From Vermamoeba vermiformis (Eukaryota), in the NCBI GenBank assembly GCA_045837725.1, contig JBEWZL010000239.1:186001-250000 (forward strand): DNA of 64,000 bases, written 5' to 3'. Below, one piece after another: positions 9,498 to 63,652 of the stretch. The stretch's first letter is position 1, and every line of letters begins with the position of its first letter. The translations under genes and the position numbers were made by a program. The notes below the pieces were generated by a model. The model had not been told where the DNA came from, ran no database searches, and worked only from the letters and a program-made list of their open reading frames with translations.

Positions 9498-12472
9498 TTA
9501 AGCCTTCTTCTTGTTCATAGTCGAGACGGCCAATTGACGGATCAAGACGAGCACGACAGTTCTGTAGACTAAGAAGATAATAATGAGACCGATGAAGCCG
9601 TAGTAGTACTCGTTGAGCTTGAGGTCAAATTGGTCCAAAATGTCAGCGCCAGTGACGAATGATTTGTCCTTGCCGGGCTCAGGAGGAGGGCACAATTGCG
9701 TCGAGGATGAAATGCATTCAACGTCATCGATGTCCTTGTATTGCACTAACATGAAGATTTGGACAGCGTACTTGAACGGAGCAATCCAGCAGATCCAGAA
9801 CCAATAGCGAGGCATATCAGATTCGCCTGAAAAAATTTGACCGTTAGATCCAGATCTCGCGAGTGTAAGTTTTCGAACAGATTTTTTGGTTACGTACTAA
9901 TGAATACACCGGAGACCATGCCCATAATACCGAAGAAGACGACACCAATAGCGTTGGCACTAGCGACGTTGGGAATAAGAAGACCCAAGATCAGCGTGAA
10001 GCCTAAAAAAGGTAAGTTCAGTTTTTTTAGTTCAAAAATTAGTGTTTCAAGAGCACTTCATACCTTCACCGATAAGTACTACGAGGTAAATCATTGCGAC
10101 ATAAATGAAGAATCGATCGGCGCCGACGGTTACACCAACCTACATATGACGGGTAAGTCTAAATATGGTAATTAAGTCGCGCGACGTACCATGAAGTAAG
10201 TGACCGCGCAGAAGAAGAGTGAGTTGATTAATAAGAAGATACACGCCGTTATTAGCTGCGCCAAGTACCATGGGAACCATCGGTAATAGCCAGTAGCGTA
10301 TTCGTGTATGAATCTATTTCTTTCTTCAATAACTACAAAAAATTCAAAAAGTCAGTACGCGATCCAAAGATCTCGATCGAGAATTATTTTTTGGGACTTA
10401 CGTTGCGGCAATGAGTTGAGGGCAGTAAAGATGTTGATAAGTGCGACGTAGAAAGCAATGCCGTAGTAGTCTCCAGCTCGCTCAGTTGAGTTAGGTATTT
10501 TATACCAAAGACTTCCGATCAGGACACCACCGAATGTAATCATAACAATTCGGATCATATAAGCCAGCGGATCTCGCTTCGCCGTTGCAAAGTTTCTCGC
10601 GATAAGCCAAAGTGTTTGCAAGAAGAATCCAGTCTGATAAGCCTTTGCTTTTTCGACCTCTTTGTCGCGGTTAGCGTGAGCGAATTTTTCTTCTAAAAAT
10701 GTAACTTCATCTTCGAGTTCTTTGTTGCGATGTTGAGACCAGTTATTAACGATGCGTTCGATGTCGTCTAGACCACCGAAATCAGCGTTGACGCAATCGA
10801 CGTAGTGATCCGCAGGATTGCAATTAATAGGCAAGGGCTTTCCTAAGTCAGCGAAATATTTCTGCATTTCATTAACAGGTCCGAAATAGACCATTTTGCC
10901 CTAAATTCATGTCATTAATAACTTGCAATCAATACACAATTTGATTCGGATCAGTTCAAGTCTCAATATCGGGACGTAATCTCTTACCTTAGCTAATAGG
11001 CACACGTTATGAAATTCGGCGAAAATAGTCGAGCGAGGCTGATGAATAGTGGCTAATACTGCAATACCGTTGTTTACGGCCAATTCTCGGATCACCTCCA
11101 TGACTTGAGTAGCAGCAGCGCTATCGAGACCAGAAGTAGGTTCGTCCAAGAACAAAATAGCTATTTTAACAAGAAATTAATACTTTTTCGAGTTGGGATC
11201 CGGATCGAACGTACAAGGCTTCTTGAGCAATTCCAAACCGATTGAAACACGTCGCTTTTGACCACCAGAAATACCACGCCTAAGAGTAACATATTAGATA
11301 TGATTTTAAATTGTTTTAACGGGGTTTTTCGTACTTGAAGGGAGTTCCGACAATCGTATCCGCTACGTGACTGAGACCCAAAGTTCTGATGACATCATCG
11401 ACCTATGCCGCCGTTAGTATTATTCTATAGTACCTTATTAAGCGTTACGTACTCTCGCGGCTTTCACAGCATCAGGAATTGAAGAGGGCAAACGCAATCT
11501 GGCAGCGTAGAGCAAGTTTTCTCGAACGGTAAGCGCACCAATCAAAGCACTAATACGAAAATATTATTAATAAGGTTTAATTAAAGCTATAGATATCTCT
11601 CTATGTTATTTACCGTTCGTCTTGCGTTACGTAGCCAATGTAAGTTTTAAAACTTTTGTCGCGAGGTTTTCCGTTCAAAGTAACGGTTCCTTGGTGCTTG
11701 GCGATAGTACGGCCTGAAATTAAGTCTAAAAGACTTGATTTACCAGCACCAGATGGACCAAGAATAGCAGTAACAGTTCCTACAAAAAAGATCTCGGATT
11801 AAAAATTTGTTTTCAGACCTGATCTCGCGTTATGGAATTTTTACCTGGTTGTAAATAGCCCGAAAGGTTGTCCAAGATAGTAATCCTCTTCTTGGTACGT
11901 TTGCAACCTTATTTAAAATTAGTTTGAATCACAAAAATCTTGATCTCGCGCACCTTCTCGTTCAGATTTGGAGACCTGATAGGTGATGTTTTTCCAAGCA
12001 AGGAGAACTTGGTCTGGTGTGAATAAGGTCTCGCGTTTCTGATTATTTAAGCAAATTAGTCATTTTTCAGCTCATTTACAGCGAGATTTCCACTTACCGC
12101 ATTTCCGAGGTTAGATCCAACCGAAACAATTGTGTCAGACTTGCCCAAATTACTTGTACTGTAGGAACGGGGAGGCATGACGTGCATATCGGCACTGGAA
12201 TTGGTACTAATGCTTGATTGCGATACGTTGGCGTAGCTTGTGGATCGCGTTGGGACTTTAGGGGGCATCGGTGGCAAAGGTCGTTGACTCGTCGTAGGAG
12301 TCATAGGAGGCGTCATTAAGAGCTAATAAATTGTGAGTATTGATATGGATGTCGTTACAATAGTTCTTACTCTCGCCTGGCTGTTGCCATGGATCGGTTC
12401 TCGGTGGCCTGGATTCGCGAGTAAGAATTATTATACTTTCGTAATACCCAAAAACTTACCGTAATCCGACAT
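9498..12472 (-). CDS. ABCG (White-type) half transporter
   Basis: Walker A GPSGAGKS, signature ISGGQKRRVSIG, Walker B LFLDEPTSGLD, NPADH, C-terminal TM domain; NBD-TMD order. Confidence 0.95.
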
Positions 12473-36506: not shown

Positions 36507-39243
36507 TCAAGATTTTTGTTTCTTTGGCGGGCTTTCATCGGGCAACGGATCCGCTTTTCGCTTGTTGTTTGTTGCTGTACCCGGCGACAACATCGTATTG
36601 TTGCTGTTATTGTTGATGTTCATATTCACATTGTTATTGAGCGGCTCGCTTGGCTTGGGCGGAAGAACTCGAGCACTAGTATTCACGGCACTGAACGCTA
36701 CTGGAGAAATCGTCGGAGATAACATGGGAGGGCTGATATGACCCACTGGACTTGTGCTCACAAACCTCTGTTTGCTCGTGGGTGAGAGTTGCTGTAGCAA
36801 GTGAAATGCAGCTTGAAGTTGTGGCTCAGAAGTCACGATGGATCCAGTACGAGGACTGACAGGTGACATTTGACCAGGGGTATTGACAGTACTTTGGAGA
36901 GGTGAGATTGCTCCTAATTGCGGCAACGGCAATAGTGTGACAATGCCAGGGCCAGTGACTGAATGTTGTCCCAATGACGGGCTCAAACTAGTGTTGTTGA
37001 CCACGAGGCTCGAGATGTTTGATGCTGGTAGCGGTGCAATGTTCTTTAACGGAGACCGCATTTGAGGTTGTAGAACTACACTCGCTTGCTGTGGCTGAAG
37101 TATGGTATTGTTTCCACTGCCTGGTTGAATGACCTTGACGGGTGAAAGTGCTGGTTTGGGCAAGATGTTCGGTGGTGCTGTTGTTGTGGTACTGTTCGAT
37201 GCTGGTTGTGAATGTATTACTAGCTGTGAGGGCTTTGCGTTGTTGTTCGCGCCTTTCTTCGGTGCCATTTGCGGCGTTGGTTTGCTTGCGCCAGGTGTTG
37301 GAGTAGCCTGAGGCTTGTTCGGAGCCGATGACTTTGCAGCTCCAGCTGACGGTGTGCTCGAGTTATTATTCGATGCCACAGGGGCCTTCTTATCTTCCTT
37401 AGTGTCTATTATTATCGTTAGTACTTACGTGGCATAAAAAGTCATTGGTATCGTCATACCTGTCTCCGCTTTGTGCAAAGCTGAAAGTGAATTCTTGTGT
37501 TCTTTGGGAATAATCTGATCATAATGTGGTTTCAAATCCTTTAGTGTGCCGCGTAGCGTTGCTTCTGCACGGCCTGCTTGCGTGGCAATTTCAGTTTGTG
37601 TTCTCTTCTCGCCAGATAAATTGCACGCAATGTAACTATGATTCAATTAGCACCCATTACGATACTCTATTTTGCTAATTTCAACGTACATTACTGCCGC
37701 GGCAATACTCACTGGATTATTGCGCGTGATAGTCGCGTAATTATCGATTCGAACAGAAATCTCGACCGCGAGATCGATTGTGCGGTCAGTCAACTTCAAT
37801 TGCTTGCCAATGCGATGCTAATAAAATATGATTAATATTATAATAGGAACATATCATAGCCAACACCTACTATATGGGCAACCGCTGTACTCGCCGATTG
37901 GGGCGTTGTCAGGTTATTGTTCGACACCACAGGTTGCTGCTCTGTAGTTGCAACGTGCACGTGCGGAATTTCTTTTTCATGTGCTAATATTAATGTTTGT
38001 GCCTCTCTGTGTTAAATAGGATAAGATACATGATCGAAAATGATCAATTAATCTGCCTTACTTGAGATAAATATGAAAGTGCTTCTTCTTGCCCGTAGTT
38101 ATCTCGGTGACTTTATCGAGTCCTAGTGGTCGTGTCTTCTTACTGAGCTCGTAAACTAATGCACCTGCCATGCTCGCTATATTTTTAGTCTTTTTGTCTC
38201 CCGTTGAAGTTGCTATATGTAGCTTCAATCTATTGAACACGCGTTATTAAAAACTTTGAAAAAAGTTGTTCGCTTACAATTCTTTGCTCTTCTTGCTAAT
38301 TTCTATATCAAGACCTAACTTTGCGACTAATTTTTCCACGACAAAATATCCCGTGATCAAATCTTTAATTCTTTTCTGTTGAATTGACGCAGGAGATGTC
38401 ATATTGCTGTGAGAACTCATGCTGTTGCTACCACTTCCAATACCACTATTAGTATTGCTTATGACATTACTCGATGAATTTGATAATTCGCCGTGCAAAT
38501 GAGGCACGTGCAAATGAGTGCTAGTGACAGCGGGCATTGGATCCGCGAACATATTAGTATTTTCGTTGATAATAGCATTGGTGATATTTGGCTTTGGTGC
38601 TAATGTATCCTCTGTATTTTTTGAATTGCGTAGAGCCTTTGCAAATTCACGCACGAATTTTTGTAATTCTGCCATTTGGCCAGGAAGCGAGCTAAAAATT
38701 CATGTTCAGCCTATTAGGATCAAAATAACTTATAATTAAACAATACCTCGAAGCACTTGAATACAATACATATCGATCGCTTTCTAAGACTGAATAGGCG
38801 GTCACGAGTCTTTCGGCTTGAAATTGGTCCTGAGGCTTGCGCTAAAATAAAGCACGCGATTAAAAGTCGCTTATATTGCGAGTATTTTATCCTAATTTAC
38901 CTCATATACATCGGGAAAATCGCTGGTGTACGCGTACAAAGGTCTGCTTTCGGTTCGTTCTACGATCGTCGGCAAAAAGTGAGATCGCTTTTCTTCGACA
39001 ATTGTCCCACATTTCAGGCAGCTTATTTTGTTATCCTTGCTAAGTAAAATATTAGTTTACGAATTTCGGTACTTGATTTAATAAAAATTGATGAAAAACT
39101 GTTCGAGATTTACCGAAACAGAGAAAATAGATACTAAAGCAACGAATAACCGCGCTATTCCGTAATAAATTAAATAATATTACTCACGTCTCAAATTCAT
39201 TTAAAGAATGACACCAAGGACATTCAACACAAGATCCCTGCAT
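36507..39243 (-). CDS. Divergent TFIIB-family protein with low-complexity insert and ~290-aa S/P/N-rich tail
   Basis: Spliced N-terminus ECPWC...ISCLKCGTIVEE zinc ribbon; cyclin-repeat motifs NIASMAGALVY and YIACNLSGEKRTQTEIA; intron 37405-37459 with TACTAAC branch point joins ORF 36507-37379. Confidence 0.7.
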
Positions 39244-39584
39244 TTTTGCCGATCAAATCTAACCGAAGACTATCGCATTCCGAAATATCTCAATAAATAA
39301 CAAATATAAAACCTATCGTGGGTCAATGCCGTTAGGAAGATTACTTAATTCTTGTGGAACTGAGCGAAAACAAGCTGGTCAAAAAAAGTCAAAGCGAAAA
39401 ACATAAATTCGTAACTTTTCTTCGGTCATTTTATCCTCCTTGCCGAAAAACGAAGAACCACAACTCTCTGTTTTACGGCATAAACGTTTAGAAAACAATT
39501 ATCAAAAGTTGGGATTAACTTCTTCGACTTTCTGTAAATAAGATTACATCAACCAAGCAAATCTATTGCACTACCAATCCGAAA

Positions 39585-40917
39585 ATGATGTCCATTGACT
39601 ATGTTCAAACTCGTATTGACACTACGGCTGGTATGCTAGAATGCCCGGTTTGTCGCAATTCGTCGCAATTTGTAGAGGGTAGGCATTCCTTAGTCTTTCT
39701 CGCTTTCAGAGATTGGATTTATAATAAAACCCAATACGAATTATTCCTACATATAACTCACCCTTCATATTTAAAGATCCCGCAAAAGGAGACATTGTTT
39801 GCGCGAATTGTGGTTGCGTTATGAGTGAAAGAATAATAGATGAGGGCCGCGAGTGGAGAAACTTCAGTGACAGTGACAAAGACCGCTCTCGAGCTGAAGG
39901 AGTGGACGAGTTTATAAGTACGATGTCTTATAATATTTTTCTGGCTCGGTTTCTTTTTTGCTTCATTTGTCTATTCTTTTAAATGATCGGATGGGAATAT
40001 TAACGTTTACTGCCCAGATGAGCTTACCACCGATATCTCTCGCTCACCCAATGCCACTGGCGATATGGCTCGCATGTCCAAAGTTCAAAATCGCATTGCT
40101 GTAGGTGTCATTTTCGAAGCAGCATCTAATCGGCAAAAAGCGGGAACTTCGGTACTAACGTTCTTTTTCCTTTCTAGTTGGATTCTAACGCGCGTAACCT
40201 CGTCTCTGCTTTCGAAAAGATCGGTCACTATGCCGAGGTTATGAAGCTCCCTAATACTATTAGAGTACGCATAAATTTTTCCGGCGCCTCGATCGTGGTT
40301 TCGAAATCTAACCCTTGTTTTTCTTCTAGAACAAAGCGAAGAGTCTTTATAAACAATTCGAGGAGAAACGCTCGAAGACAATGAGAGGCACCAAGAAAGA
40401 GGCTATTATTGCCGCTGTGTTGTACATGGCTTGCAAAGAAGAGCTGGTGCCTCGTACCTTCAAAGAATTGGCCAAAGAAACTGGCATTAAAGAGAAAGAC
40501 ATTCGCAAATTCTACCGCAACTTGACCCAATTGTTGCCTAAGACGGTCAATACCGCTCAAGCTGTTTCACCTGTTGATTTGGTGGTACGTAACGGTCACT
40601 TTTCGAATCTGATCTTATGCTCAATATTGATTGCTTAGAACCGCTTCTGTTCCAAACTCAAACTCCCCCACGAAATTGTCACAGCTGCATGCGCTGTGGC
40701 AGATAAAGCCAATCCTCAACTCGAAGGCAAGAGTCCTAGCTCGATCGCTGCTGCTAGCATTTTGATGGTTACCAAACTGAGCGACCAAAAGCGATGGGAG
40801 AAGGACATTGCCGAGGCTGCCAGCATTTCACCGACGACTATCAGAAACGTTTACAAAGAAATGCAAATGCTTCCGGGCTTGTTGCCAGTTGAGAATCCGA
40901 CGCCCAAGACAAACTAA
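39585..40917 (+). CDS. GTF2B: General transcription initiation factor IIB
   Basis: CPVC...GDIVCANCG zinc ribbon, IIDEGREWRNFSD B-reader, AAVLYMACKEELVPRTFKEL, GKSPSSIAAASI. Confidence 0.95.
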
Positions 40918-41132: not shown

Positions 41133-43392
41133 TTACATTTTGTCAAGATAAAGAGGAAGGGTAAAGGTTTTGCCTTTGACGAGATCCTCGATTCCCTCGC
41201 CGCGGTATGTTACGAGCGGTGATATTTCGCATAACTCTGTAGTGTCCTTGTCGCGGATGACCTTGCCACCAGCAGCCTCGATGAATCGAATGTGGAGGTT
41301 GGACAAGTGTTGGCGGCAAGTTCGAGGGTTGTCAGATGCCGCATTTTCATCATTCTTCAAAGGAGAGAACTCTTCACTTCGAAGGACCTATTGGTGGGTA
41401 AAAAGAATTATTAGCAAGAGACAAGGGAGAAACAGAAAGCTCGCCAGCAAAAAAAAAAAATCAATGTGCCAACCCCTGGAATTGAACCAGGATTTTTGGA
41501 GCCACAATCCAATGTTCTTCCGTTGAACTAGGTCGGCTTGGTTGATTTTTGATTGTCGACGAGACCCGATCACTTAGGATATCTCGAACATCTATCCTTC
41601 CGATCTGCGTCTTGTGCTTACCTCCAATGCTACCATGTTTTTCGAGAATTCAAACACGTCAAAGACAAACAGTTCCATCTTCCAACCGTTGTTGACTGAC
41701 GGGGTTTCTGTCTCACCGCGCTCGTTAACACACGGGATCTTCTTCTTTGCAATATGATAACTAGTGATGCTATTAGCCCATGATAGTGACTTAACACGAG
41801 GTGAATACTTACGGAAGTGTATGAAGGGCAGTGCGTGTGATGTACTTGATAAAGTCCAATGAGAAGTCGTTCAACACAATATGACTCCAGTTGTACAACA
41901 GCTCTTTCGTCTCTGGATCACGTGCCTGTCTTCGTTGAGGATCGATCTCGCTGTACTCAATGACAGAGTGCTTATCATCTTTTAAGCATAGCACACCGAC
42001 TGGTTCCTCAGGATAAGCCTATTGCAAGTTCGTAAGACAGATCTCGAAGATTTCAGAGGTATTTCATACCTTCGCGACGACTTTTGCAGCGCAATCAGCT
42101 TTCTTTTCTTTGCAGAACCCAACGAACAAAGGATCCGCTACGCGTACCAAGATGTTATCAACGCAGTACGAGCTGATCCACGTGACGCCTCTTCGTTCCA
42201 TATCGTCCAATGTGCCCGTCTGCACAAGAGCGGCGTACAATCCACCATTGCCGTTCGGTGCGGTGGCAATCTAATTTCATGAATGAGCATAAAGAGTTGC
42301 CACAAGGAAAGCAAGGTTACCTTGTGTTTGGTTTCAAGAATTATTTTGCCCTCGGGTGTAATGCACGGGAACTCTTCTTGTTTGAAGAAAATAACTTGAT
42401 CTTTCTCGAGACCGAAGAAATTGTTCTTTTCGAAAAATTCTTTCGTTGGTGCATCCGTCGCAAAACTTGTCATAATGTACCAAGGCAAACTGACGCACTC
42501 TATCGAGGTAATTAGTTCGTATTAATATTAAATAAGATGCATACTCTTTCCAGAGAATTCGGATGCTAAGAATTGTAAGCGGAGAATGCGCTCGGCCTGA
42601 ATTTGGTACAATGATTTTCCTGAAGGTGTTCCGACCAGTGCAACGTAGTTAAAGGTAATAAATCGAAATTTGCAATAAAATTATATATGAAAATAATAGT
42701 ATTAAGGATATCATACATTCCCTTCGGTAAATCAGATCCCAAGCGCGTGCCCTAGGCGGAACATTAGATCTTGCAACAATTTTCAGACTATTAAATTTGC
42801 AATACCTGTCCTCCGGCCATCAACAATAGTGCTACGTGTCCGTCGGCGATTTCTTGGTAACCAATTGATAGCCATCGCTTTCTATCCTCAGGTGTGACGT
42901 CCGACAATTTGGTAATATCCTTCATGGGTTTAATTTCGACTCCTTTTTCTTCGCGACCTTCGCCAGACTTTTGAACTATACTGGTATTAAATATGCACGT
43001 GAAATCAAGTAAACTTACGAATATTGAAGCTGAAGCCTATGAAAAAGATTCCAGTTAGATCTTGCAGTGCCACGTCGACCGAAAATTTTTTAATTTTATT
43101 ACCTTTAGTAATCTGCTCTTGGTAAATATCGTTCACGAGTTTGACGTCGATTCCCTTAATTTTAAAATTATAAATAACCGTTTTTTTATCAAAAGTTTCG
43201 GATGCTGGTACTTGCACCGAAGGAATTTTACAACATCACGATTTGTTTCTAATAATATTATTAGGGTACCTTCAATTGTTGGAGGAGCTTTGCTTTTTCT
43301 TCGGGATTGAGCTTATGGACGAACTTGAACACGTGTCCTTGGCCAGCTTCGACCCATTTTGCTCTAATTTCCTCAAATTCAATGTCACCCAT
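41133..43392 (-). CDS. UAP1: UDP-N-acetylglucosamine pyrophosphorylase
   Basis: AGQGHVF, LLMAGGQGTRLG...[50 protein letters not shown]. Confidence 0.95.
41467..41537 (-). tRNA. tRNA-His(GUG), inside the last UAP1 intron, same strand as host
   Basis: Cloverleaf: GCCGACC/GGTTGGC acceptor, GTTC/GAAC D stem, TTGGA-TTGTGGC-TCCAA anticodon arm, GGTTCAATTCC B box, poly-T terminator. Confidence 0.95.
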
Positions 43393-43467: not shown

Positions 43468-43791
43468 GATATCCTAAGTGATCGGGTCCTGTCGACCCGA
43501 AAAGCCAAAATTAACCAAGCCGACCTAGTTCAACGGAAGAACATTGGATTGTGGCTCCAAAAATCCTGGTTCAATTCCAGGGGTTGGCACATTGATTTTT
43601 TTTTTTTTTTTTTTGCTGCGTTGTTTGTCACTTATCTCGTGCTCATTCTTTTTTACCCAACAATAGGTCCTTCGAAGTGAAGAGTTCTCTCCTGTGAAAA
43701 ATGATGAAAATGCTGCAGCTGATAACCCGCGAACTTGTCGTCAACACTTGTCCTATCTCCACACTCGATTCATCGAAGCTGGTAGGAAGGT
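43468..43791 (+). pseudogene. Inverted duplicate of part of the UAP1 last intron and start of last exon (partner ~41262-41583)
   Basis: Collinear identity from GATATCCTAAGTGATCGGG through the tRNA and acceptor into [28 protein letters not shown]. Confidence 0.9.
43519..43589 (+). tRNA. tRNA-His(GUG), second identical copy
   Basis: Same 71 nt as 41467-41537, followed by a long poly-T. Confidence 0.95.
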
Positions 43792-43842: not shown

Positions 43843-45823
43843 TTATTCGCCGACTTCTTGTTGAATCTGCACAGCGTTCTCGGCTGCTACATAGAATATG
43901 CCTTGCTTCAAGTACGTCAAAAATTTGGTGTAGTACACGGTGCCTGCAATGTCCTTTGCGCTTGGTTGTTGCACGATGGCTTCAATAATGCTGTACTTCC
44001 ATTCTTTGCCGAGCTTTGTCGGCTCAGTTCTTCTATTCAACAAGTAGTCTGCCATGCCAGGGAAGGCGAGGATCTCCGTCAGTCCCCAGTTGTGTTTAAC
44101 AACGGCCTTAATCAACGCGAAAACTGCGTATCGTAGCTCGACCAAGTGATAATTCAAGTACTGGTACAAGAGTTGCGTGGTCGGAGGGTGCAATGAAACT
44201 CTGTTGTAAATGTCGCGAAGTGTTTGAGTCTCAGTCTTATTATCCGATTGTCTATGACAAAGAAGAGTAAGTAGAGTAAGCAAAGGGATTTGGTTACGGA
44301 TGTGCCATACCTTTCTTCGAACATGTGCGCGAGTGAGAAGTAGAAGCAGATTCTTGCGTCCGTATTAGATGAGCTGCTGAAGTCCGTAAACTCTTGTAGC
44401 CTAACATATTAAGCGTCAGCTATGTGCGCAAAACGAGTAACTAGATCCGGAGCTGTACGTACAAATCAGGTTGTTGTGCGAGCCATTGAACACCACTTTG
44501 AGAAATGCCAATGCACGAAATGGCTGTAATAACTGCCTCCTATTAAAAGAGGTCAGATATTGTGAGGTGTGACATATACGAGTAACTTACGATTGCTTCG
44601 AAGTTAGATCCGTTGAGGTGTTTGATGAATGGCTCCTTGAGCGGTAGTGTAACTAACTTTTCGAAAAAGAACGAGCCAAGTTTGGCAATATTGCCTATAA
44701 TCTTGATTGATCGCACTGAAACGAGTGAATCGTTGCTGTTAACCAGATCCAAAATCGTTTTCAAGATGCCTTGTTGCTCGAGCCAAGTTAGGCCTTCCTC
44801 GCTTTTGCCAACCTTTTGGACAATTGTTAATATATATAGACGCCGTATAGTACAAGTTGAGTACCTTTTCAACGAGTTCTAATGCGTTCAATTGCTCCAA
44901 AATATCTTCAGATCCGAGCTCTTTGACGATGTTATTGAACATGCCTTGCTCGTTGCAAATAGCAAATGCTTTAGGACTAGTGCTAGATAGTTGCGCAAAT
45001 AGGTCTAATATTCTAAATCGAAGGGTTTCATCATTCTGGTATTTGTTGAGCAATGCTGTAACTTGGGGAATGTATTCTGTTATGATCTCCAGTCCGATCG
45101 GAACACGGGCAATCTGAAATCATAAAATTTTAATATTAGGCGGTATATATAATACTTTTTTTTTACGTTTCAAATAAATTTGAATTAAAGTAATGAAATT
45201 GCCTCGCGAGAATCATAGAATTATAATAAATACCTGTATTATTGTGTCTGAGGCTCGTTCAGCGATAGAGGTGACCTCGTCAACTACTAGATCTATAATA
45301 TCATTCAATAAGCCGTTTTGTTGCTGAACAAAAAAATTAGTGAGTAATTATTGCGTGGATCTAATTCGGATCGGACTTACAATATATTGAATTCCCCATG
45401 GATTGGCGCTAATGCGTTTAATTTGGTCAATAGTCAGTGTTCTTAATGGTGCCGACGGGCTCTTAATTCCCATCTTTAAGTACGGCTTGATCTAATTTTC
45501 AATTTGGGTTAGAAAATTGGAAATAATTATGAACAAGGTGTAAAAGTAATTTCAATACATATGATACTACTACCAAAGCAGTTAAACAATTATTGAATTT
45601 GTTAGCAAATTATGACAAATTATTAACCCGCAAAACTTTTCACGATGGATCAGAAGCGATAATATTATAATTATTATATACATACTGCATCGGAGCGTAG
45701 CTTTTGAAGGCCTGAATCTCCGTCCAATACTTTCTTCACATTTCCAAGGACATCTTGAAACTCGTCTTCGTCATTAACTTGGCCGAGCTTCTCGAATAGT
45801 TGAACTAAATCTGATGCTTCCAT
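43843..45823 (-). CDS. PSMD5: 26S proteasome assembly chaperone PSMD5/S5b/Hsm3-like
   Basis: ETLRFRILDLF, SEDILEQLNALEL, YLLNRRTEPTKLGKEWKYSII, YLKQGIFYV match PSMD5 motifs. Confidence 0.85.
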
Positions 45824-60872: not shown

Positions 60873-63652
60873 ATGGAACCTCACAAGCATACCGAGAAAC
60901 ACGTTATCACCGAACGTGTTGTCCCTAAGGACGGTACCACTCAACGCGTTCTCGTTGAGCAACCTCACATGGGCCAAGAGAAGATTGTTGTCGAGAAGGT
61001 CGATCCCGCCACTGGTGACACTATTCGTGTTATCAAGGAGGGCCACACTTCTGGCATCACTGGCGCCATGAAATCGATCGGCCAGGGTCAAGTTCCGACC
61101 AACGCTGACTTCCAACAGCTCGTCACCAGAACAGATCCTGCTTTCGAGCGCAGATTGGCTGATCCTACTTTGCCTTCTGAGACTAAGAAGGTCATTGGTG
61201 ATACTCAAGCCTTCTTGCACGCTGCCAACCAGACTATGCAATCCGTGAATCAAGGCGGCCACATCCAGAACTTGGCTATGTACGCTGGTGAAGCCGGAAC
61301 CCACGCTAGAACTAAGGCGTAAGTCTCAATTTATTGCTATGTGCAAAATTCAGTCGCCGATTACCATATATATTGAAATTGCAAGGCTAAAAATCCTCTC
61401 GATTCCCATTTTGTCGACGAAAAGTTTTGCTAATTTTTGGTTAATTTTCAGTGATTTGGCCCGCACAGATCCCACTCTTCGTGGCAAGGCCAAGAACCGC
61501 TTAAAGAAGGCTAAGGGCCGTGGTCGCGACATCGGCTACGGTGCCTACACTGTTGCCAAGTTGTCCATCAGAAACAGCGAATTCCGTCGCTTGTTGGTCG
61601 ACATCATCCGCTTGGTCCAAGAGATCTTCTTGCGCACTGTTCAACAACGCAAGGGATACTCTCAACAATTGACCGGTGCTACTACTATCCCTACTGCTAT
61701 CCCCATCACTGGCACTACTCCTGCTGTCGTGCAAGTCGTTGAAAGCACCGCTCAACCCATTGTCACTCCTGGCGTCCCCGTGTCAACTTACTCTTCGGGC
61801 TTGCCCGGAGTTGTCCCCGTGATCGAGGGCAATGTTGCTAGCGCTACTACCCTCCCTGGCGGCTACGACTACATGTCTTCTGCTCCTCTTACCTCGCAAT
61901 ACTTTGACGAGTACGAGTGGGCCATGCCTGACTACTCCACTTCGACGGTCAATGTCCCCTTGGTCGGCCAAACTGTTATGCCCACCACCACTACCACCAC
62001 TACCGCCACCACTAGCGCTTGGTCTGCCAGCATTCCTCAATCCAAGAAGCGCGAGTTGGCCCAAAAGGTGCTCGAGTTGTTGCGCAGATTCAACCAGACT
62101 CCTCAATTCCAAACTGGTTTGACCGCTTTGATCCAATCTTTCTACGACTTGGAAAGATACACTCGCGCCAAGGTCAAGACCACTCCTCACGCTCAATCGA
62201 AGATCACCTACGCCGACAAAATGTACGGCGAGGTTCGCGCTTTGTTGACTCCTTATGCCCCCAACAAGAACTTGAGCCTCATCACCTCTGGCTTCAACCG
62301 ACTGTTCGAGGACATCCGCGCTGATCAACGTCGCAGCACTTACTTCTCTGAGCTCAGACTCTTCTTGGACACTTTGTTGACCAGCCCCGAGTACATGGAC
62401 GAAGAAACTGCCGTCTACCAAATCGAAGACTTCATCGATCGTGGCCGTGAAATGTTCTCTGACTACCGCTACAGATCCGAGACTAGATTGTTGTTGGACA
62501 ACTTGCGCACCATGTACTACAACATTGCTACTGACCCCAACTTGGTCAACTTGAAGACCAAGACTCAAACTTTGATCGAAGACTTCATGTGGGTCGACGA
62601 GACTGGCCGCATGCAAATCAACACCGAATTGCTCGGAGAGATGCGTCACGTGCTCATCCCCATCTTGTTGGAATCCATGCAAACGATGCGCTTGCCCGTC
62701 ATCGAGGGTACCACCAAGAAGATGGACTTCCGCGTTGAAGACATGGTCTTCTCCACTTACGACTTGTTGCCCGAGAACATCAAGCTCAAGACCAAGAACC
62801 AAGCTAAGATGAAGAGCTACACCACTGGTCGCCCCGTCATTCCCACGCCTCACCTGAACCACGTTGCTCTCACCTTCAAGCTCCACCACATGCAGACTCG
62901 CATGGAGAACATCCGTTACTGGTTCAGACGCAACTCCTTCCCTAAGGTCGAGGACTCTGGTCTCGTCGACGTCGCCATTGTCGGAGGTGGCTTCAACTTG
63001 AAGGTCAAGACTTTGTTGCGCACCACCAGCACTACTCCCAAGTTCACTGTTAGCAAGGTCAAGGTCCACATCGACCGATTGGACGTCAAGTTCCACGACG
63101 CCAAGTACGACTGGTTGCTCAACTTGGGTACCAAGTTGTTCCGCAAGAGAATCCAACGTCAAATGGAGCTCCAAATCGAGAACAGAATCCGCACCTACGG
63201 CTTCAGAATCGAGAAGGCCTTGAACCGCGCCTTGAAGAGATTCCCTCCAGAGAAGTTGAGATCTATGGCTCACCGTGGTGCTGAGAACAGTAAGTGACAC
63301 TTTTGACACCTGTCAAGAACAAACTTTCTAATCCAATCTTTCTTTAGTCCGCGCTCACCGCGCCAACTTGCAACAAGGCACCGATGCTGGCATCCCTGTT
63401 GAGTCCAAGGGCGATGTCTTGAGACACGGTGTGGACCGCCTCAAGGAGAAGGTCAAGGAGAAGACTTTGGGCACTACGGCTCCTCAATCTGGCTACGTTG
63501 AGCCCATTCCCGTTGCCACTACTAGTATGCCCGCCATGACCACAGCTCCTATGGCCACTACGACTATGATGGGTACTGGTCCTGTGATCACTGAGACTAA
63601 GGTTAAGCCCACTCAAACGACCACTACCACCACTACTACTTACCAATCTTAA
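60873..63652 (+). CDS. HAM1-like / DUF4449-type protein with C-terminal BPI/TULIP-like domain, 3 exons
   Basis: GQVPTNADF N-terminal motif, helical middle, LIPILLESMQTMRLPVIEG...VEDMVF...PENI, YWFRRNSFPKVEDSGLVDV, HDAKYDWL; strong C/G-ending codon bias. Confidence 0.7.

Follow-up and report, generated by a model that had tools for sequence, protein, structure and literature searches.

What kind of factor is encoded by a gene of the TFIIB fold that lies head to head with the gene for TFIIB itself? The choice of RNA polymerase at a given promoter lies with TFIIB-like factors, of which three or four are found in textbook fungi and animals; opisthokonts, to our knowledge, have only TFIIB, Brf1 and Rrn7. 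The question arises from a 64,000-nucleotide stretch of Vermamoeba vermiformis DNA (assembly GCA_045837725.1, contig JBEWZL010000239.1, positions 186,001 to 250,000 of the forward strand), referred to below as the window and numbered from its first letter, in which a minus-strand gene, here called the paralogue, and a plus-strand TFIIB gene are transcribed away from each other. An earlier sequence-only reading had proposed that the paralogue encodes a lineage-specific initiation factor, and had cited the plant TFIIB-related proteins (pBRPs) as an analogy only. Our analysis points to a closer kinship: at a probability of roughly two in three, we consider the paralogue to be a member of the pBrp/BRP1 family outside plants and algae. 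This family is treated as a plant and algal addition in a review among PMC7865254, PMC3044737 and PMC11319285.

A pBrp-type linker between ribbon and cyclin repeats

TFIIB-family proteins of this kind begin with a zinc ribbon and carry two cyclin repeats, and it is the region between the ribbon and cyclin repeat 1 that sets the paralogue apart from its neighbour. Here the alignment reveals motifs that are common to plants and the paralogue and absent from TFIIB. The plant consensus for this linker reads VVEER / FVERA.D.PL..VTPDF / DPFE..GFITAFS / GHLAELER; the counterparts of its last three motifs (FVERA.D.PL..VTPDF, DPFE..GFITAFS and GHLAELER) in the window are IVERTESRPLYAYTSDF, DQFQAERLVTAYS and GQMAELQK. 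That the linker is the family-defining region is our reading of the alignment and not a published criterion.

To put numbers on this likeness, we used profile hidden Markov models (HMMs) built from 16 plant pBRP1 proteins only. With the N-terminal HMM, the paralogue reached 43.6 bits in an alignment to positions 2-127 of the model's 142, as against 3.6 bits, through the ribbon only, for the window TFIIB. When the ribbon was removed, the remaining linker-only HMM (about 90 residues) still scored 32.7 bits against the paralogue, where 200 shuffled versions of its N-terminus reached 7.9 at most, and neither the window TFIIB nor any TFIIB-type protein of about 300 aa stood among the best 60 rows for this model. 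Repeat 2 also holds nearly invariant columns that the paralogue and plant pBRP1 have in common.

The ranking of relatives in a database search agrees with the linker. A phmmer search with the full-length orthologue P0009 (described below) against 1.84 billion representatives returned 295 matches at E<=1e-3, led, once two tail fragments from its own lineage are set aside, by P0018-P0028, proteins of 487-924 aa with E values of 3e-21 to 5e-14, while the TFIIB/TFB-type proteins of about 300 aa outside the pBrp clade scored 1.5e-9 or worse. Close relatives among these representatives were only fragments of the paralogue's own lineage (P0016, 73%; P0017, 55%; P0029; P0058). In a Pfam scan of 39 long matches, PF00382 was present in all 39, Zn_Ribbon_TF in 2 and the BRF1 domain in none. 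With a linker common to plant pBRP1 and a search ranking beside it, the description of the factor as lineage-specific finds no support.

The same linker was found in proteins from further protists, namely Rhodelphis marinus, the chlorarachniophytes Norrisiella, Chlorarachnion and Amorphochlora, Stygamoeba regulata and Anaeramoeba ignava (P0037, P0116, P0046, P0032, P0106 and P0113), the last-named organism's protein carrying the NCBI label 'plant-specific tfiib-related protein'. Organism names came from 7 of 20 clusters looked up, none of them fungal. A pBrp-type linker in Rhodelphis, chlorarachniophytes, Stygamoeba and Anaeramoeba means that the 'plant-specific' family is spread over several supergroups. 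The literature covered, to which Lagrange 2003, Imamura 2008 and Knutson 2013 did not belong, yielded no account of pBrp other than from plants and algae. In six pBrp-clade proteins of 600-720 aa (P0085, P0063, P0055, P0065, P0067 and P0086) the ribbon is missing and the sequence opens directly with the GHLAELER-type motif, which points either to gene calls cut short or to a family variant that lacks the ribbon.

Gene models of the divergent pair

Gene models were built by hand from stop-to-stop open reading frames (ORFs) and the sequence of both strands, and then checked by script. The start codons of the two genes are separated by 341 bp (39244-39584), in agreement with the figure of about 340 bp given by the sequence-only reading, whose coordinates and description of the pair were confirmed. 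The paralogue runs on the minus strand from its ATG at 39243 to a stop codon ending at 36507, a genomic span of 2,737 nt, and its nine exons yield a coding sequence of 2,211 nt for a protein of 736 aa. All eight introns are of the GT..AG type with CTAAC/CTAAT-like branch sites; seven measure 48-59 nt and the first 148 nt. The N-terminus assembled in this way is the same in P0009, except for one residue at the exon join. The features of the locus are as follows.

39188..39243, minus strand: paralogue exon 1, with the start codon and first CxxC (Cys5, Cys8); donor GTGAGT, phase 2
38901..39039, minus strand: paralogue exon 2, with the second CxxC (Cys26, Cys29) and the first pBrp-type linker motifs, IVEEK... 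and VERTESRPLYAYTSDF
38747..38841, minus strand: paralogue exon 3, with the linker motif that is the counterpart of plant DPFE..GFITAFS (alignment and plant linker HMM)
38278..38691, minus strand: paralogue exon 4, with the G.MAELQ helix (plant GHLAELER motif), the S/N/H-rich insert and the beginning of cyclin repeat 1
38062..38229, minus strand: paralogue exon 5, remainder of cyclin repeat 1
37871..38006, minus strand: paralogue exon 6, poorly conserved linker joining the cyclin repeats
37690..37817, minus strand: paralogue exon 7, first half of cyclin repeat 2
37460..37635, minus strand: paralogue exon 8, second half of cyclin repeat 2, with the conserved ...KRTQTEI...EATLR... helix-turn-helix
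36507..37405, minus strand: paralogue exon 9, the 299-aa S/P/N-rich disordered tail and stop codon
39244..39584, no strand: spacer between the divergent ATGs, 341 bp, 5' untranslated regions (UTRs) and promoters
39585..40917, plus strand: canonical TFIIB gene, six exons, 312 aa
39585-39678, 39777-39917, 40018-40100, 40178-40264, 40330-40584 and 40639-40917, plus strand: TFIIB exons

Domain content and predicted fold

The plus-strand gene is, by its domains and motifs, canonical TFIIB: Pfam finds Zn_Ribbon_TF (7e-13) and two TFIIB repeats (2e-12 and 1e-15) in the product, which has the REWRNF form of the B-reader. The paralogue product departs from this plan in the ways that the sequence-only reading had described. 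Its ribbon cysteines stand at positions 5/8 and 26/29 and align with the ribbon of plant pBRP1, and the EWR motif of the B-reader was not found in its sequence. The N/S/H-rich insert noted there lies at aa 125-195 (S 18%, N 15%, T 10%, H 7%), and the disordered tail, put at about 290 aa, measures 299 aa (P 15%, S 14%, N 10%) and has 13 SP and 5 TP sites, compared with one of each in the 437-aa core. At its terminus, KRKADPLPDESPPKKQKS, the tail has the PPKKQKS ending already noted, as part of a basic stretch, KRKAD...PPKKQKS, that resembles a nuclear localisation signal (NLS). The view of the paralogue as a TFIIB-family factor with a specialised role, separate from the TFIIB next to it, is supported.

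Cyclin repeat 2 can be recognised from sequence, by PF00382 at aa 328-416 of P0009 (E 1.9e-13); when the window's own exons were scanned one by one, only exon 8 was matched, by a sub-threshold TFIIB repeat (3e-4), a match too weak to classify the protein. Cyclin repeat 1 was detected as a fold alone, in the AlphaFold model, with no Pfam match. This AlphaFold2 run used an alignment of 87 rows, a run on P0009 alone as a single sequence having given a mean predicted local distance difference test (pLDDT) score of 38, which was not used. The model contains a ribbon (pLDDT 82-90), a helix at aa 101-124 that includes the G.MAELQ motif (88-91), and two five-helix cyclin repeats at aa 196-305 and 330-440 (above 90, and 91-96 over 196-305); the insert, the inter-repeat linker (310-326) and nearly all of the tail fall below 50. 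Helix 101-124 is probably the counterpart of a B-linker helix. A conserved helix of the paralogue has the sequence EPQLQAAFHLLQQ.

Searches of known structures placed the core nearest to TFIIB. In Foldseek comparisons with the PDB, TFIIB chains lead with E values of 1e-9 to 1e-7, in matches to the TFIIB core that span 214-309 alignment columns, and Brf1 follows at 1e-4; by sequence, the best PDB matches are human TFIIB repeat 2 (5e-8) and archaeal TFB, with yeast Brf1 at 0.026. The ESM Atlas assigned the core to the 'TFIIB family' (score 0.92) through clusters that are mostly viral, an assignment of no discriminating value.

Although predicted to be disordered, the tail exon contains the conserved blocks LPLPQ.G, EPQLQAAFHLLQQLSP and ARVLPPKP; the blocks LPLPQ.G, EP.LQAAF.LLQQ.SP, ARVLPPKP and KRKAD....ESPPKK.KS are identical across five sequences from relatives (P0009, P0016, P0017 and the loci L001 and L002, of which the last two are nearly identical and the most distant, P0017, has 55% identity). 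We infer from this pattern that the blocks may be short interaction motifs together with a putative nuclear-import signal.

Splicing, selection and synteny in relatives

The sequence-only reading had left room for the exons not being spliced together. A relative of 714 aa, P0001, is 85% identical to the paralogue product and was the sole match in a search with exon 4; its 90% cluster contains two full-length orthologues of 727 aa, P0009 and P0014, and our model agrees with P0009 end to end (83% identity, same exon joins). These two orthologues are encoded by uninterrupted ORFs on contigs of at most 2,280 and 2,303 nt. Because the contigs are shorter than the genomic span of the gene, about 2,694 nt in the relative locus L002 and 2,737 nt in the window, they would be intron-free and hence RNA-derived. 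At least in the relative, then, the exons are joined as modelled.

Conservation follows the gene models. Compared with the metagenome locus L003, from a relative that is about 77% identical, nucleotide identity is 79% in exons and 53% in introns of the paralogue, and 89% and 66%, respectively, in TFIIB, which is 65-100% identical to the L003 copy. Ratios of non-synonymous to synonymous substitution rates (dN/dS) against relatives are 0.03-0.08 in the core exons; in exon 6, which is 69% identical to the relative, they are 0.15-0.17, and the tail has a dN of 0.22 with saturated dS. By these rates the core of the paralogue is under strong purifying selection, and the joins, identities and rates together indicate that the paralogue is a real and constrained gene that is probably expressed.

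The arrangement of the two genes is conserved as well. In L003, TFIIB lies upstream of the paralogue on the opposite strand, with the ATGs 373 bp apart; the synteny check proposed by the sequence-only reading thus came out in favour of the head-to-head pairing, and divergent pairing is conserved among close relatives. Between the two spacers, 232 of the 341 window bases are identical, a conservation (68%) no better than that of the TFIIB introns (66%). A 31-bp block at 39506-39536, 49-79 bp upstream of the TFIIB ATG, is identical in the window and L003, and may be a promoter or 5'UTR element. Shared regulation of TFIIB and the paralogue, as the sequence-only reading proposed, is plausible.

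Phylogenetic placement and alternative explanations

Maximum-likelihood (ML) trees were computed from 83 rows. Besides the two window proteins and P0009, the set took in 13 pBRP1 proteins from plants, 17 further proteins in which the linker was found and 7 in which it was partial, as well as 30 proteins of about 300 aa and 13 further long ones; matches under about 250 aa and most plant near-duplicates did not enter it. In the tree of the cyclin core (208 columns), the paralogue and P0009 are sister to a pBrp-like clade of 46 rows with a Shimodaira-Hasegawa-like approximate likelihood ratio test (SH-aLRT) value of 92, and the window TFIIB falls in a separate group of 8 rows; in the tree of all shared columns (351), a 48-row clade receives an SH-aLRT value of 99.

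Several observations weigh against pBrp membership or against what might be built on it. In approximately unbiased (AU) tests, grouping of the paralogue with the 8 TFIIB rows was not rejected, either for the cyclin core (p 0.51, likelihoods essentially equal) or for all columns (p 0.35, delta lnL 9.9). The branch leading to the paralogue lineage has a length of 1.55-1.75, so that its placement in the trees is fragile, and the trees were made without Brf1, Brf2 or Rrn7 rows. Pfam does not recognise the ribbon or cyclin repeat 1 of the paralogue, PF08271 (Zn_Ribbon_TF) not being listed at E<=1 in scans of the exons and of P0001. The paralogue adjoins TFIIB, as local duplication would produce. 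Our analysis covers the window, one stretch of the genome. The functional reading rests on homology, within a family whose function is itself disputed between the RNA polymerases I (Pol I) and II (Pol II) in PMC7865254, PMC3044737 and PMC11319285. Given the long branch, the AU results and the absence of Brf1, Brf2 and Rrn7 rows, it is chiefly the linker signature, together with the rank order in the search, that carries pBrp membership, which the trees by themselves favour and do not prove.

How, then, could the gene have arisen other than as a vertically inherited pBrp? Local inverted duplication of the adjacent TFIIB gene, followed by fast divergence and the gain of an insert and tail, with the likeness to pBRP1 due to convergence or a retained ancestral character, would fit two direct neighbours lying head to head at 341 bp, the long branch (1.55 at its shortest), the AU tests just described and the fact that the nearest solved structures, by sequence and by fold, are those of TFIIB. 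We think it unlikely, since the paralogue is only 28% identical to its neighbour, over repeat 2 only, while its linker of about 90 residues matches a plant-only pBRP1 profile in the same motif order, well above every shuffle and with no TFIIB-type protein in the best 60 rows, and since both ML trees place it with the pBrp clade and not with the window TFIIB. By our own count the ribbon introns of the two genes are also offset by 4 nt in the alignment and are not in the same phase, so that no shared intron supports a local duplication. A true pBrp gene might, on the other hand, have been acquired horizontally from a plant, alga or protist. The very narrow distribution, with close relatives confined to own-lineage fragments among the 1.84 billion representatives, and the lack of a fungal name for any of the 20 clusters looked up would suit such a transfer, which we hold to be somewhat less probable still: the paralogue branches outside all 46 other pBrp-like rows and not within plants or a named protist group, its eight short introns are in the intron style of the host, and its dS against relatives is saturated, which implies that the gene has long been resident.

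That the paralogue is simply the organism's own Brf1 (Pol III) or Rrn7/TAF1B (Pol I), an orthologue much altered by divergence, the outcome under which the sequence-only reading would have fallen, appears very improbable. The orthologue does bear the JGI automatic name 'TFIIIB Brf1 subunit/TFIIB', its length and long C-terminal extension resemble those of Brf1, and the part of the genome covered is the window. Against this, the only Pfam families that P0001 yields at E<=1 are PF00382, DUF7695 and Cyclin_N, with no BRF1, BRF2-type or RRN7-type family among them, the tail exon matches no family at the same threshold, the BRF1 domain is missing from all 39 related long proteins, and Brf1 trails TFIIB in the structure comparisons both by sequence (0.026 versus 5e-8) and by fold (1e-4 versus 1e-9). 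The suggestion of a Brf2-like factor for snRNA-type promoters fared no better and was dropped, as a Brf2 signal was absent from both the Pfam and the fold searches: PF21886 (BRF2-type repeat) is not listed for P0001 or P0009 and occurs in only 1 of the 39 relatives, and no Brf2 or Rrn7/TAF1B chain is among the best 50 fold matches.

Proposed function and wider meaning

If the paralogue is a pBrp protein, as we think probable, analogy with studied members makes it likely to be a TBP-dependent alternative initiation factor. In the proposed mechanism, the two cyclin repeats would dock onto TBP and promoter DNA, the N-terminal zinc ribbon would contact RNA polymerase, and the pBrp-type linker would stand in for the B-reader of TFIIB and so confer another polymerase or promoter specificity; the disordered tail would bear sites for phosphorylation, a signal for nuclear import and short conserved motifs for interaction. 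The gene structure, the fold, the family signature, the purifying selection and the conserved pairing with TFIIB are results of this analysis; binding to TBP, the choice of polymerase, entry into the nucleus and co-regulation with TFIIB are predictions.

For the polymerase that the factor might serve, analogy offers candidates. In passages of PMC7865254, PMC3044737 and PMC11319285, the pBRP1 of the red alga C. merolae is described as occupying the rDNA promoter with TBP, as needed for Pol I transcription in lysate and as co-precipitating with RPA190; Arabidopsis BRP1 is described there as binding TBP, and brp1 knock-outs as having normal growth and rRNA and defective Pol II expression of defence genes. 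Because of the red-alga work, our best single guess for the partner is Pol I at the rDNA promoter, with a chance of roughly one in three; a role at a subset of Pol II promoters, with gene-specific action of the kind put forward for Arabidopsis BRP1, would be about as likely, and other roles would take up the rest.

A broader proposal, which we put forward tentatively and at somewhat less than even odds, is that pBrp/BRP1 is an ancient fourth branch of the TFIIB family of eukaryotes, often lost and surviving in plants, red algae, Rhodelphis, chlorarachniophytes, Stygamoeba, Anaeramoeba and the lineage of the window, where it would be paired divergently with TFIIB and would perhaps act as an alternative factor for Pol I or special promoters, in an opisthokont if the host is a fungus. 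A true pBrp in such a host, taken with the matches in Rhizaria, Amoebozoa and Anaeramoeba, would shift pBrp's origin toward the base of eukaryotes, and what has looked like a plant curiosity would become a case of repeated loss. A microbial system of this kind could settle what pBrp does. The divergent pairing with TFIIB also yields a testable hypothesis, that expression of a general factor and of its specialised relative is coupled.

Other features of the window

Just downstream of TFIIB, two tRNA-His(GTG) genes form an inverted pair at 41466-41537 (minus strand) and 43519-43590 (plus strand), scoring 65.6 bits each against Rfam; they flank a UDPGP-family gene (ORF 42138-42521, PF01704), which by its sequence is probably a UDP-sugar pyrophosphorylase. 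Towards the end of the window, an uninterrupted plus-strand ORF of 682 aa at 61249-63297 contains a HAM1_N domain (3.8e-45), a family of fungal type, and its nearest Atlas clusters are from Ascomycota and Mucoromycota. On these sequence signs, a single marker gene together with the size of the introns and their branch sites, the host would tentatively be read as a fungus. Antisense to it, a 509-aa open frame at 61783-63312 (minus strand) has no Pfam match; this region has the window's strongest negative GC skew, -0.14, so that the antisense frame is probably an artefact of composition.

The remaining neighbours, among them the minus-strand ORFs 10352-10900 and 43843-44364, are of housekeeping eukaryotic types. 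They include an ABC-2 transporter, a proteasome non-ATPase subunit (PSMD5-like), a ribosomal protein of the L7Ae/L30e family and an RRM protein, as well as an aminopeptidase P N-terminal domain, an alpha/beta hydrolase and an armadillo repeat. In a survey of 39 further window ORFs only generic eukaryotic domains and no taxon-specific families were found.

Comparison with known TFIIB-family factors

Set beside plant pBRP1, the paralogue has the same CxxC...CxxC ribbon, the family linker in place of the B-reader with its motifs in equal order, two cyclin repeats and a low-complexity C-terminal extension of the variable kind that also marks the plant members found here (487-924 aa). It differs from them in its host, which looks fungal, in its sequence, whose identity to the plant proteins is about 24-27% and whose branch is long, in an added S/N/H insert before repeat 1 and an added linker exon between the repeats, and in its position head to head with TFIIB. 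The basic end of its tail, KRKAD...PPKKQKS, is a further difference, as for BRP1 the Arabidopsis paper reports no NLS.

With canonical TFIIB (Sua7 or GTF2B), the paralogue has in common a ribbon and two cyclin repeats, including the conserved ...TLR... helix-turn-helix of repeat 2, and it is told apart by the missing EWRxF reader, by its length (736 versus 312 aa) and by an identity to the neighbouring TFIIB that is confined to repeat 2. Specialised factors that have stayed closer to TFIIB offer a second comparison. Arabidopsis pBRP2 is described as lying within the TFIIB clade, with a ribbon and reader that are still TFIIB-like, and the specialised TFIIB of Tetrahymena is described in PMC12082453 as grouping with TFIIB itself. 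Like the paralogue, each would supplement the general factor with another of TFIIB type, presumably one that serves a subset of promoters; unlike them, the paralogue has no reader and carries a pBRP1 linker. The general plan of ribbon, linker, cyclin repeats and C-terminal extension recurs in Brf1 (TFIIIB70), Brf2 (TFIIIB50) and Rrn7/TAF1B, each of which adapts the TFIIB plan to another polymerase, and the paralogue would represent the same kind of solution.

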